From NCBI GenBank assembly GCA_964597255.1, contig CAZQWX010000063.1, forward strand, positions 1 to 29,571: a DNA stretch of 29,571 nucleotides, written 5' to 3'. The notes beneath the pieces are model-generated. The model saw only the letters and a list, made by a program, of their open reading frames with translations. It had not been told where the DNA came from and did no database searches. Each line of letters starts with the position of its first letter. Position 1 is the first letter of the stretch. Shown piece after piece: positions 14,715-18,704 of this stretch. The stretch comes from an uncultured Gammaproteobacteria bacterium. Lineage in GTDB: Bacteria; Patescibacteriota; Microgenomatia; JAMCZE01. The translations under genes were made by a program, and so were the position numbers.

Positions 14715-14823
14715 CTGCTGTTCGGTTTGGGCAGCCCGAATTACGAAAACAGGTCGTCTCCACGACGACAAAGACGAGCGAACCAACAATATGTTCGCCC
14801 AAAAAGCTATTCAACTGAGAGTT

Positions 14824-14851
14824 AGTTTACCAGAAAATTACCAAGAGTCAA
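14824..14851 (-). promoter_or_regulatory. Putative rpoBC promoter
   Basis: TTGACT-16 bp-TAAACT with an extended TG. Confidence 0.5.
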
Positions 14852-14861
14852 GAGAGGAAAT
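14845..14861. repeat. 17-bp direct repeat, copy 1 (GAGTCAAGAGAGGAAAT)
   Basis: Exact match to 17475-17491; extends to 20 of 21 nt with the CCA flank. Confidence 0.85.
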
Positions 14862-15241
14862 TACTGATCATCTTTACTACCTAATTTGCTCCTCGGCCAC
14901 CTATGCCAATCGCAAACTATGTCCCAAACTTCTTGCCAGTCGCGATATTTTCGTTTCTCCCACATCTCATAATCAGCAGCGAAGTTCAGCCGATCGTGGT
15001 GTTCTGGCCGACGTAACTGATCACCTAATATAACCTTATATTCTTTTCCCTCGTGAACTATGCAAGCCCCAGCTTTTCCGCTGCTAGCATCAACAACTGA
15101 TCGGGAAAATGGATCAGTTATCTCCCCAAGGGTTCGCTGGGTCCAAACTCCTTCAATAGAATGCCAGAAATCAAGAAAATAGGTGTTATGTGTATGAGCA
15201 AAAAGTCTACCAGCTCTTTCGTAAACCCCGGGTTCAGACAT
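14861..15241 (-). CDS. Hypothetical protein (126 aa), third gene of the His-swivel operon
   Basis: AGGAGG 7 nt before the ATG at 15241; the start overlaps the upstream gene stop (ATGTCTGA); no family recognised. Confidence 0.7.
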   Translation of the reverse strand: MSEPGVYERAGRLFAHTHNTYFLDFWHSIEGVWTQRTLGEITDPFSRSVVDASSGKAGACIVHEGKEYKVILGDQLRRPEHHDRLNFAADYEMWEKRKYRDWQEVWDIVCDWHRWPRSKLGSKDDQ

Positions 15242-16322
15242 TCGATTCCTCCTTTTGATTGTTTTGCTGCCCTGGAACATAATTACTCCGGGGATCAAAA
15301 GCCTGCTTCAACTCATTCCAGCCAAGTTCATCAGCAGCATCAAGCCTAATTTCCTTCCAGGTGTTAATTATGTCTAAAATTAGCTTCGGTGGTCGCCAAT
15401 CCTGACCGAAAGCTGCCCGCCATTTTCGGAAGGCATAATACCGACTTTCCACGAACTTCCAGGTGACCTGCCTATGGGTCATGGAGTTTAACAGCTCATG
15501 TTGCCTAGCAACCTGATGCAAGATTTTTCCACATACTCCACCAGCCATTTTTGTGCTGATAATTTCTTTTCCCCCAACCTCGAGATAGACTGCACTCGCA
15601 GCTTCTGTCAAAGCTCCCCTAACTGACGGGTGATCAAAAATATCGATGTTTATTGCGGACATTGGCTTATAGAGGACCAGTAGTTTCGCGTTGGGATAAT
15701 CAAACTCTTTTGTCTCCGGCCAAAGTTCTACTGGCCGGATATTAAAAAAATCACTAACCACCAGCAGGGCCTTTGTCCCATCTGCCAAGGTCACGGGATA
15801 TGGCCCATGGTGCTGATAGCCCACATCATCCCAACCATAAAAATATAAACTCCAAATGAGTGCCTTAATGCTGGCCGAGACTTTAAAGCACGACCGAATC
15901 AGAGCGGGGTCATGTGTCCAGTGAGTTGCCTGACAAACCTTCTGGGCTTGATCTTGCTGCCAAATGCGATTAGTACCGTCCAGACAAAAAATGTCTCCAG
16001 ATTGTACCTCTTCCAAAGCGTCGAATATTTTCTCCACAAACCATACACGTTGAGTGGCAGAGATAGCTGGTTTGGCCACCTTCAACCCAACAATTAGGTC
16101 CATCAGCGACCCTTTGGTCGCTCCGCACGAGACAAACAGATCCGACAGTTTGATCTTGGATCCTGGCCTGGTTATCACCTGCATTTTTTGATACAAATCA
16201 GCTGCTTCCAGGTCTGAAAAGTATGGGGCTACCTCACTAATCGGCATGGGCCACGGCGCAATCTGGCCAGTGTGGACAAATGCCAACTCTAAAGCTGAGA
16301 GCCATTGATCAATCCGCTTCAT
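15234..16322 (-). CDS. Uncharacterised ~362-aa protein coupled to a PEP-utilising mobile domain
   Basis: Long ORF; ATG at 16322 after AAAGGAGAGG, overlapping the end of the swivel gene by 14 nt. Motif-like stretches YFYGWDDVGYQHHGPY, DIFDHP and WRPP; no family recognised. Confidence 0.85.
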   Translation of the reverse strand: MKRIDQWLSALELAFVHTGQIAPWPMPISEVAPYFSDLEAADLYQKMQVITRPGSKIKLSDLFVSCGATKGSLMDLIVGLKVAKPAISATQRVWFVEKIFDALEEVQSGDIFCLDGTNRIWQQDQAQKVCQATHWTHDPALIRSCFKVSASIKALIWSLYFYGWDDVGYQHHGPYPVTLADGTKALLVVSDFFNIRPVELWPETKEFDYPNAKLLVLYKPMSAINIDIFDHPSVRGALTEAASAVYLEVGGKEIISTKMAGGVCGKILHQVARQHELLNSMTHRQVTWKFVESRYYAFRKWRAAFGQDWRPPKLILDIINTWKEIRLDAADELGWNELKQAFDPRSNYVPGQQNNQKEESNV

Positions 16323-16638
16323 ACACCTCTCCTTTCTGACCGTCAATCATAATCTTCATACCCGTGGCAATCACCACCGTTGCCTTTTTTGTAGCTACCA
16401 CACAAGGAATCCCCAGCTCCCGGGCCACGATTGCCGGATGGGAGTTCACTCCCCCAAGGTCAGTCACAATTCCAGCAGCATGCTGAATGATGCCGACAAA
16501 CATGGTTGTGTCAGTAATTCTGGTAACCAGGATGTCACCATGCTTCAGGGACTGCGCTTTGTGGGAAAACATAATCACCCTGGCCATACCAGTGGCTTTT
16601 CCGGCTCCAGCCGGCCAACCTTTGACAAGTAGCTTCAT
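16309..16638 (-). CDS. Stand-alone PEP-utilising enzyme mobile (phospho-His swivel) domain
   Basis: GDILVT...AAGIVTDLGGVNSHPAIVARELGIPCVV matches the PPDK/PEPS/EI/Rph phospho-His signature (His67); only 109 aa. Confidence 0.92.
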   Translation of the reverse strand: MKLLVKGWPAGAGKATGMARVIMFSHKAQSLKHGDILVTRITDTTMFVGIIQHAAGIVTDLGGVNSHPAIVARELGIPCVVATKKATVVIATGMKIMIDGQKGEVYEAD

Positions 16639-16676
16639 GGGTGCTATGATAAACTACGACGTAACGTATGAGTCAA
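16622..16676. promoter_or_regulatory. Overlapping divergent promoters with a MerR-type operator
   Basis: Minus strand: TTGACT (16676-71)-19 bp-TATCAT (16651-46), with the dyad ACT-N3-ACGT-N-ACGT-N3-AGT at 16653-16673. Plus strand: TTGACA (16622-27)-17 bp-TATGAT (16645-50). Confidence 0.85.
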
Positions 16677-17459
16677 GATCTACTCAATATCGGTGACTTT
16701 GCCAAGATGGCCGAGACGACCAAGCGCACGGTTTTATGGTATGAAGAAAAGGGTATTTTGAAGCCAAAACAGGTCGATACTGAGAATGGCTACCGATTAT
16801 ATGCAATCGACCAAATCATCGATTTCAAAGCTATTCTTTTACTACGAAAGCTTGACTTCTCGATTGAAGAAATAAGAAGTTTTCTGGCCAAACAGCATAC
16901 GCCAGAGGCACTGTTTAACCTAAAGAAAAAAGCCTTACAGCAAGAAATTGCTGACTTGCAAACTGTCCTGCGTGACACCGATAAGTATTACCGCAACCTG
17001 CAGAAAACCGGCACCTTGGTCGATCCGAGAATAAAAACATTTAAATCTTTTCCGGTGTTTTATATCGACAAACTTGGTCCTTACTATCAGATTGATGATT
17101 ATTTTACGCAGTTGCGATCATGTTTTGACTTTATTCCCCCAACTGTCAAGGGTCTGGTACTTTACGAAGGCGTTGGCTATCAACCAAAAAATGTCAAAAC
17201 CAAGATTTGTTTTTGGATTAGGCCCGGTTTAAAACTCAAGCCAGAAGCCAAAGACGTCGTCAAAAAGATGACTGTCCCAGGATTTAGGGCTTTGGCCTAT
17301 ACCCACTATGGATCAAGCCGGTTATTATCCATGCTTTGGGTGGAGCTCAAGAAGTATCAGGTTAAAAATGACTATAAAGCCGATCAGAGCTTGCCATTTG
17401 AAGATGCGGAATTGTCTGAAAGTGCCCATGTCACCGAGATGTTGATGCCAATTAAATAG
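16668..17459 (+). CDS. MerR-family transcriptional regulator with C-terminal GyrI-like effector domain
   Basis: N-terminal IGDFAKMAETTKRTVLWYEEKGILKP..D.ENGYRLY wHTH, then a coiled coil and a C-terminal ALAYTHYGS...Y domain. Confidence 0.92.
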   Translation: MSQDLLNIGDFAKMAETTKRTVLWYEEKGILKPKQVDTENGYRLYAIDQIIDFKAILLLRKLDFSIEEIRSFLAKQHTPEALFNLKKKALQQEIADLQTVLRDTDKYYRNLQKTGTLVDPRIKTFKSFPVFYIDKLGPYYQIDDYFTQLRSCFDFIPPTVKGLVLYEGVGYQPKNVKTKICFWIRPGLKLKPEAKDVVKKMTVPGFRALAYTHYGSSRLLSMLWVELKKYQVKNDYKADQSLPFEDAELSESAHVTEMLMPIK

Positions 17460-17474
17460 TTTTACTTTTGCCAG

Positions 17475-17491
17475 GAGTCAAGAGAGGAAAT
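17475..17491. repeat. 17-bp direct repeat, copy 2
   Basis: Identical to 14845-14861; lies between the convergent merR and copZ stop codons. Confidence 0.85.
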
Positions 17492-17709
17492 CAGGATGGC
17501 TCTGACTGATCAGAAATTTTATAGCCAGACTTCGCGACGATCTGCTTGATATCCTGGTCACTAATTTTTTCCGGCTCGTATTCCACCTCGACAACTTGGT
17601 TGGCATAGCTGCATTTGGCTTTAATGCCATGGTCCTCCAGATCCCACTCGATCGTCATAGCGCAGGAGCTGCAATGCATGCCGGATACGCTAAAGGTTTT
17701 TTTGATCAT
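17491..17709 (-). CDS. copZ: Copper chaperone (HMA domain)
   Basis: 72 aa with a GMHCSSC metal-binding motif; last gene of the copper operon. Confidence 0.88.
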   Translation of the reverse strand: MIKKTFSVSGMHCSSCAMTIEWDLEDHGIKAKCSYANQVVEVEYEPEKISDQDIKQIVAKSGYKISDQSEPS

Positions 17710-18704
17710 ATGACATTAATTACCCCGCGGTACATGCCCATGGCACACATAAATGGTACTGTTCCGGTGGTGGTCGGCGCTGTAAAATCAACGGTTTCTG
17801 TTGTTCCAACTTGAACAATTTTACGAATCCCAAATGATGGGATGGTAAAAGCCATGGCACAACCGCCGCCGCCTTTGTTGACCAGGGTCAACTTTACCGG
17901 TAGCCCCGCTTTCACTGTCACTTGGTTGGGAGTGTAGCCGCCTGGTCCAATAGTAACAGTTGGAGTTTGAGAAACGTCTTGGGCGACGACCGGACCGTCG
18001 GTGCAAATGGTCACAGTACAAATAACCTGCCGGAGAACATTCTGTGCTCCAAAGGTCACGCCAGTAAGAGCAAAAGCATTATTTAAATTAAAAACGGCCA
18101 GGCCGATGACCACAACAGCGGCCAGGCGTAAGAATTGTTGCTGCATCACTTCACCCAGTCTGGTAGCCAAGTAGCCCAAGATAAAGAAAACCGGTGACGT
18201 GCCCAAAATGAAAGCCAGCATAATTAAAGCTCCAGACAAAGGTTGGCCAGAAGCGATGGCCAAGGCCATCATCGCCTGGGTGGTTCCACAAGGCACAAAA
18301 ATAGTAAAAGCTCCCAAGATTAGTGGGGCAAAGACACTTTTTGATCGGGAACTGTCACGAACCAGCCGGGTCAAAAATCGTGGTGGCTGGATAACAAAAT
18401 AACGAAAAATTGGATGGGCTTGGAGTAAATTTAGCGCTGAGCCAATCATAAAAACGGCAACAAAAATTTGCAGCAAGCCTTGGGTCTGGGTGGACAATTG
18501 AAAGGCACTACCCAGAAGACCAAGGAGCATGCCCAAGATGGTATAAGCAATAAGCTTGGCTCCCAAGAAATACATAATGGTCAGACCGCCCCGTTTCTCC
18601 CCTTCGGTTTGAGCGATAGTTGTGGCCAAAAGCCCGCCTTGGACAGCCAAACAACTCAGACCGCCAGCCAGAAGGCCAGTTAAAAAGATGGCTACAAGGT
18701 TCAT
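17706..18704 (-). CDS. TauE/DsbD_2-like membrane protein with C-terminal cupredoxin domain
   Basis: [19 protein letters not shown], multiple TM segments; C-terminal [11 protein letters not shown]...C...[10 protein letters not shown] cupredoxin-like domain. Confidence 0.85.

Follow-up and report, generated by a model that had tools for sequence, protein, structure and literature searches.

How is an operon switched on when its first gene begins only 29 bp from the gene of a divergently transcribed regulator? This question is raised by the window, i.e., the whole stretch of 29,571 nucleotides analyzed here, in which a gap at positions 16639-16667 separates two start codons. On its minus-strand side, the gap is followed by an operon of three genes, the first of which encodes a 109-aa stand-alone PEP-utiliser mobile (phosphohistidine swivel) domain protein (16309-16638; PF00391, E 5e-23). 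On its plus-strand side, it is followed by the gene for a 263-aa MerR-family regulator (16668-17459). It appears likely that the gap and its immediate borders hold two back-to-back, overlapping sigma-70-type promoters, that the operon promoter is controlled by the adjacent MerR/GyrI-like regulator through a dyad located in its spacer, and that the resulting operon mRNA is leaderless. From the established mechanism of the family, we infer MerR binding, the response to a ligand, the start of operon transcription and autorepression.

Anatomy of the promoter pair and the adjacent regulator

Promoters activated by MerR-type regulators combine sigma-70-type hexamers with an over-long spacer of 19-20 bp and a palindromic or pseudopalindromic operator centered near -24. 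Sequence inspection and pattern search reveal this organization on the minus strand of the gap, where TTGACT-19-TATCAT is an exact match to the pattern TTGACT-N19-TATNAT. The -35 hexamer TTGACT (16671-16676) doubles as merR codons 2-3 (AGT CAA), the 19-nt spacer (16652-16670) begins with CAT (positions 1-3), which is the merR start codon read on the opposite strand, and the -10 hexamer TATCAT (16646-16651) is separated from the swivel ATG by 7 nt (16639-16645). The hexamers, the spacer length and the 7-nt distance had been announced by the original prediction and are present in the sequence. The putative MerR operator is a 21-bp dyad, ACT-N3-ACGT-A-ACGT-N3-AGT, spanning 16653-16673 on both strands, and its assignment relies on the sequence itself, on the conservation of its register and on the resemblance to the albA promoter. 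The dyad is centered on the A:T pair at 16663, which corresponds to spacer position 8 and to -24, and its ACGT-A-ACGT core occupies 16659-16667, i.e., spacer positions 4-12. The dyad lies in the spacer, as had been proposed, but the proposed overlap of its core with the merR start codon has to be corrected, since the core merely abuts the ATG at 16668 and only the extended 21-bp dyad overlaps it. Within this extended dyad, only 7 of the 10 positions per arm pair with one another, and the flanking triplets are asymmetric: one of them has to serve as the merR start codon, so that CAT faces CGT.

A second promoter, oriented toward merR on the plus strand, is formed by a -35 hexamer TTGACA (16622-16627) located inside swivel codons 4-6 and an extended -10 element TGcTATGAT (16642-16650), in which the TG lies at 16642-16643 and TATGAT at 16645-16650. 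In a promoter scan, this TTGACA-17-TGcTATGAT arrangement conforms to the consensus at 11 of 12 positions. The two -10 hexamers have five of their six base pairs in common, on opposite strands and with an offset of 1 nt, and the -35 of each promoter falls within the coding sequence of the opposite gene.

Domain and homology searches assign to the regulator a winged helix-turn-helix, a coiled coil and a putative GyrI-like C-terminal domain, an architecture found in BmrR and EcmrR. In the Pfam search, PF13411 and PF00376 match residues 7-74 and PF09278 matches residues 55-100. The GyrI-like match of the window protein itself is weak, with 18.8 bits against a Pfam cut-off of 26. Paralogs that align with it over the full length (37-47% identity) pass the cut-off, with E-values down to 2e-11, and this full-length homology is the sole support for the GyrI-like assignment. 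The best match in the PDB is EcmrR (E 2e-12).

In the model proposed here, merR would be expressed from a strong, constitutive TTGACA-17-TGnTATGAT promoter, and the operon promoter would carry good hexamers, lying 2 bp out of phase with each other. The adjacent MerR/GyrI-like protein would sit as a dimer on the 21-bp dyad in the spacer and, as long as the ligand is absent, would keep the operon promoter inactive. Binding of a drug-like ligand in the GyrI-like domain would then lead to kinking and under-twisting of the spacer, enabling RNA polymerase to open the promoter. The first transcribed nucleotide would be the A of the swivel ATG or one adjoining it, yielding a leaderless mRNA for the swivel protein and for the 362-aa and 126-aa proteins encoded downstream. 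Bound MerR, or polymerase engaged on the operon promoter, would in addition diminish merR transcription through autorepression and promoter competition. Since the predicted operator extends over the merR transcript from about -4 to +17 and the -10 boxes have 5 bp in common, lower merR transcription would be expected, as at mer.

Conservation of the pattern and comparison with known systems

The significance of the pattern was evaluated in shuffled sequences, in the genome of origin (864 kb in 165 contigs) and across genomes. The genome of origin is a small one of the CPR/Patescibacteria type, and one of its proteins has a homolog labelled Candidatus Microgenomates. None of 100 shuffled versions of the window contained TTGACT-N19-TATNAT, which occurs exactly twice in the genome. 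Each of the two sites adjoins a gene for a MerR/GyrI paralog, with ACGTwACGT occupying spacer positions 4-12. The second copy, on contig C122, displays ACGTAACGT at these positions, inside a perfect 17-bp palindrome, and adjoins a MerR/GyrI paralog that is 38% identical to the window regulator. Because of the incomplete pairing of its arms, the window dyad may have a lower affinity than this perfect palindrome. The core motif ACGTNACGT has four sites genome-wide: two have a central A/T and coincide with these promoters, and the other two lie in non-promoter sequence. The same promoter is also found in a related CPR genome, beside its MerR/GyrI gene.

A cross-genome scan with TTGACT-N3-ACGTNACGT-N7-TATNAT, using one genome per species, returned matches in at least 120 genomes, whereas the size of the collection and the 19 specified bases lead to a chance estimate of about 4. 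The matches listed belong mainly to Clostridia, Chloroflexota and Patescibacteria, and their consensus reads TTGACT-CTn-ACGTwACGT-nATAGTT-TATnAT. Nearly three quarters of the matches listed adjoin a MerR gene. Among the 120 matches listed, the MerR gene is immediately downstream in 78, and a TipAS domain was detected in 66 of the 71 downstream, co-directional regulators that were scanned. A divergent MerR gene is present in 11 of the 120 listed, and 7 of 13 scanned regulators (10 divergent ones from the matches listed, that of the window and 2 related ones) gave a GyrI-like match. A near-consensus merR promoter, TTGACA-17/18-TATAAT, lies back-to-back with the target promoter in 12 of 14 divergent loci, with the -10 boxes offset by exactly 1 nt, as in the window. 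This recurrence bears out the second promoter that had been claimed for merR, with its -35 inside the swivel gene.

The MerR-type promotion pattern in the gap is therefore non-random and conserved. That the hexamers and the short palindrome have met by chance and carry no regulatory meaning could be argued from the frequency of short motifs in AT-rich intergenic DNA, and indeed 25 of 100 shuffled versions of the window contain one or more copies of ACGTNACGT taken by itself. Such a coincidence is nevertheless scarcely credible, given the absence of the composite pattern from all shuffles, the position of its sole other genomic copy beside a paralog, the excess of matching genomes over the chance estimate and the MerR genes adjoining most of the matches listed. 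Likewise, the claim of a MerR architecture (a 19-bp spacer, a dyad at -24 and an adjacent MerR gene) holds well, as the register is kept at the paralog, in the related CPR genome and in at least 120 genomes.

The sharing of an operator core with the C122 paralog makes cross-regulation possible. The operon promoter could be of MerR type and yet be governed mainly, or jointly, by this paralog, the two proteins acting as cross-talking sensors. Both operators have the same core in the same register, and the recognition-region residues (TTKRT..Y, Y42 R43 Y45) are invariant across this MerR/GyrI group. On the other hand, the two operators have different flanking triplets, and all the divergent loci examined have the regulator gene directly beside its operator, so that local pairing is the simplest interpretation. 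We consider control by the C122 paralog somewhat unlikely and retain control by the adjacent regulator as the preferred reading.

Three groups of characterized systems offer a comparison. In the mer operons of Tn21 and Tn501, merR is divergent from merTPAD, the promoters overlap, and one MerR site in a 19-bp spacer both activates one promoter and represses merR. This is established knowledge, as reflected in the titles of two 1993 papers, one by Livrelli and one by Lee. The window resembles mer in its divergent overlapping promoters and in its single, here predicted, MerR site in a 19-bp spacer. It differs in that the mer regulator is a metal sensor devoid of a GyrI-like domain, that the mer genes have leaders, and that the two window genes are only 29 bp apart, with each -35 inside the coding sequence of the opposite gene.

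With BmrR (Bacillus subtilis bmr promoter) and EcmrR (E. coli), the window regulator shares the MerR winged helix-turn-helix, the coiled coil and, putatively, the GyrI-like multidrug-binding domain, and the promoters have in common the 19-bp spacer and the dyad centered at -24 on an A:T pair. The bmr operator core is of the CCCC-TAGG type and differs from the window operator. The target also differs, being a swivel-domain operon with an mRNA predicted to be leaderless rather than an efflux pump. Cryo-EM of the BmrR activation complex places a kink at -24, which is the operator center, within a 19-bp spacer (PMC7722741), and EcmrR, a MerR regulator with a GyrI-like domain, under-twists its 19-bp spacer with unpairing of the central A:T (PMC8113463).

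The albA/tipA class, i.e., AlbA of Klebsiella oxytoca, TipAL of Streptomyces and Mta of Bacillus, resembles the window in its -35 sequence TTGAC(C/T), its 19-bp spacer and its ACGT-N-ACGT core at spacer positions 4-12 with the center at -24. The albA promoter reads TTGACC-CTG-ACGT-C-ACGT-CAG-GCAG-CAGAGT, and the half-sites, described together with the cryo-EM analysis of AlbA, extend over -32..-25 and -23..-16 around a central base pair at -24 (preprint 10.64898/2026.10.20.760489). In operators of this class, CTN...NAG arms, beginning in the -35, flank the core. For AlbA, the motif obtained by SELEX, ACNCTNACG, reaches from the last bases of the -35 into the first part of the spacer (preprint 10.64898/2026.09.21.753095). 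The left arm of the window dyad, ACTCATACG, fits 6 of the 7 positions specified by this motif, and the outer triplets of the dyad are asymmetric. Three features set the window apart from this class: the regulator has a putative GyrI-like domain instead of a TipAS ligand domain, its gene is divergent and not self-transcribed from the regulated promoter, and the merR start is encoded in the outer arms of the dyad, which makes them degenerate. The earlier statement that ACGT-N-ACGT cores occur in TipA-type operators is supported both by the prevalence of TipAS domains among the scanned regulators and by the ACGT-C-ACGT core of albA.

As read from its sequence, the window promoter combines an operator of the TipA/AlbA type with a regulator of the BmrR/EcmrR type; it belongs to a known class and its mechanism is not new. 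The match of dyad center, spacer and central A:T to solved systems makes its anatomy a textbook one. Notable are the extreme compaction of the promoter, the probable lack of a leader in its output and its target operon, which includes a 362-aa protein without a known fold.

Behavior within the family varies, in that TipAL was not a repressor in early studies and AlbA shows basal activation without ligand (preprint 10.64898/2026.09.21.753095). It could accordingly be imagined that the window regulator acts purely as a repressor and autoregulator, like certain other MerR-like proteins, and that the 19-bp promoter is weakly constitutive and escapes ligand-driven activation. This is very unlikely, as a putative ligand-binding GyrI-like domain is retained and as exact 19-bp spacing is kept together with near-consensus hexamers across at least 120 loci, a signature of the distortion mechanism. 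Activation by spacer distortion is the reading followed below.

In CPR bacteria, regulators of the same family (34-47% identity) face UvrA-like ABC genes at six loci (L002, L004, L031, L046, L115 and L136). These loci have the same operator, register and back-to-back promoter pair as the window. They differ in their target, a UvrA-like ATPase, for which the window has the swivel operon only. In CPR bacteria generally, the gene facing a MerR/GyrI regulator usually encodes a UvrA-like ABC ATPase. The window and its relatives bring to light the use of the TipA/AlbA operator by GyrI-type MerR regulators in CPR bacteria.

A probably leaderless operon transcript

Judged by its conservation, the swivel start codon (16636-16638, minus strand) is secure, as five homologs have the N-terminus MK(L/V/I)LVKG in common from M1 onward. 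The 7 nt that separate this codon from the -10 leave no room for a Shine-Dalgarno site, and the ATG is predicted to be the start of the mRNA. For 663 long ORFs of the genome, this geometry was compared with the sequence preceding the first ATG. The TANNNT hexamers whose end lies 6 nt from the ATG number 70 and those at 7 nt number 41 (examples on contigs C8, C11 and C15), while other positions have a background of about 15 each, so the distance found at the swivel promoter is the second-highest position of the genome-wide peak. Many of these upstream TANNNT sites have TG-extended -10 boxes, and Shine-Dalgarno tetramers are weakly enriched upstream of the same ORFs. Given this peak at 6-7 nt, leaderless transcripts seem to be common in this organism, and the swivel-operon mRNA is probably leaderless, which makes the initial prediction plausible and consistent with the genome-wide TANNNT pattern.

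Comparable distances of 6-8 nt occur elsewhere. At L019, a UvrA-like gene has its ATG 7 nt after a TATAGT -10 box, and at L115 the distance is 8 nt. In five Chloroflexota loci (L062, L080, L089, L092 and L096), genes for TipAS-type MerR regulators begin 6-7 nt past the -10 of the same operator-promoter, so that MerR-activated leaderless transcripts seem to recur in Chloroflexota.

The mRNA might instead be leadered, with a start that lies, for example, only a few nucleotides before the ATG or at an unrecognized promoter within merR, and be translated independently of a Shine-Dalgarno site. The swivel homologs of L015, L017 and L142-L144, which lack an obvious -10 at 6-8 nt, would fit such a situation, and Shine-Dalgarno-independent initiation seems common in the genome. 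A promoter scan of the minus strand yielded no other promoter-like site near the swivel gene, however, and both the conservation of the swivel N-terminus from M1 and the position of the 7-nt distance on the genome-wide peak speak against a leader. A leadered mRNA is therefore held to be unlikely, and the leaderless transcript remains the preferred reading. The locus is matched in DNA runs of a mine-drainage study and is absent from three small metatranscriptome runs of the same study. A limited literature search returned no relevant paper on leaderless mRNAs in CPR bacteria. The genome-wide signal bears on the way translation is initiated in these reduced bacteria.

The swivel operon and its possible cassette

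Downstream of the swivel gene, whose end overlaps its start, lies the gene for a conserved 362-aa protein (15234-16322, minus strand). The third gene (14861-15241, minus strand) encodes a 126-aa protein, is preceded by an AAGGAGG Shine-Dalgarno site and begins in overlap with the stop of the 362-aa gene. The domain search assigned no family to the 126-aa protein, and its gene is not conserved next to homologous pairs of swivel and 362-aa genes. For the 362-aa protein, no match was obtained in Pfam or NCBIfam, in the PDB profile search or in the ESM atlas. Its AlphaFold model is confident (pLDDT 89.7) and finds no relative among solved structures, the best values being E 0.12 with Foldseek against the PDB and Z 4.4 with the wide VIA-align search. 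It does match unnamed clusters of the AlphaFold database, of which two show a fusion to PEP-utiliser swivel domains. The proximity of rpoB, which is the next gene, led to consideration of a split enzyme resembling rifampin phosphotransferase; this idea is unsupported, as similarity to RPH domains in fold or sequence does not go beyond the swivel domain.

Many CPR metagenome contigs contain the swivel and 362-aa genes as a conserved pair whose members overlap. In seven other contigs, homologous pairs have no adjacent MerR gene, which means that the link between regulator and operon is not universal. The motif conservation that had been proposed as a check is found beside homologous MerR/GyrI regulators; most homologous swivel pairs have no MerR neighbor. 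At L019 (567-5083), the swivel pair is distal in a single operon led by UvrA-like genes (split in two), with a MerR/GyrI gene facing it. The promoter there is TTGCAT-19-TATAGT, and its operator was recognized upon re-alignment as a degenerate copy of the same operator. This arrangement, taken together with the absence of a MerR gene from most pairs, indicates that the association of the swivel pair with this type of sensor arose at least twice.

The genes directly downstream of the swivel operon are rpoB and rpoC. A 24-nt direct repeat, present at 14838-14861 and at 17468-17491, exactly brackets merR and the three-gene operon. The two copies are identical at 22 of 24 positions and are spaced by 2630 bp; the left one contains the rpoB -35 (TTGACT, minus strand) and the right one lies 9 nt past the merR stop. 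This bracketing suggests that merR and the swivel operon were inserted as a cassette. Within 14790-14865 on the minus strand, 9 nt separate the stop of the 126-aa gene from the rpoB -35 (TTGACT-16-TAAACT). A scan that covered only 15000-18000 detected no terminator-like site, so that transcription of the induced operon may read through into rpoBC.

The promoter firmly ties a widely conserved gene pair, that of the swivel and 362-aa proteins, to a regulator of the drug-sensor type, and this tie provides a handle on the function of the pair, namely induction by drug-like ligands. One can tentatively imagine, although this is less likely than not, that a MerR/GyrI drug sensor switches on, via a leaderless transcript, a new phosphohistidine-swivel enzyme system that modifies or inactivates a small-molecule toxin. 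The partner in this system would be the 362-aa protein, whose fold has no solved relative and is swivel-fused elsewhere, and the whole would constitute a 2.6-kb repeat-bounded cassette inserted directly upstream of rpoB.

Two further gene arrangements were observed among the homologs. At L141 (793-4562), the homolog of the 362-aa protein comes after an ATP-grasp_3 protein and a cytochrome P450, and L142 (3185-6835) contains two pairs of swivel and partner genes in opposite gene order.
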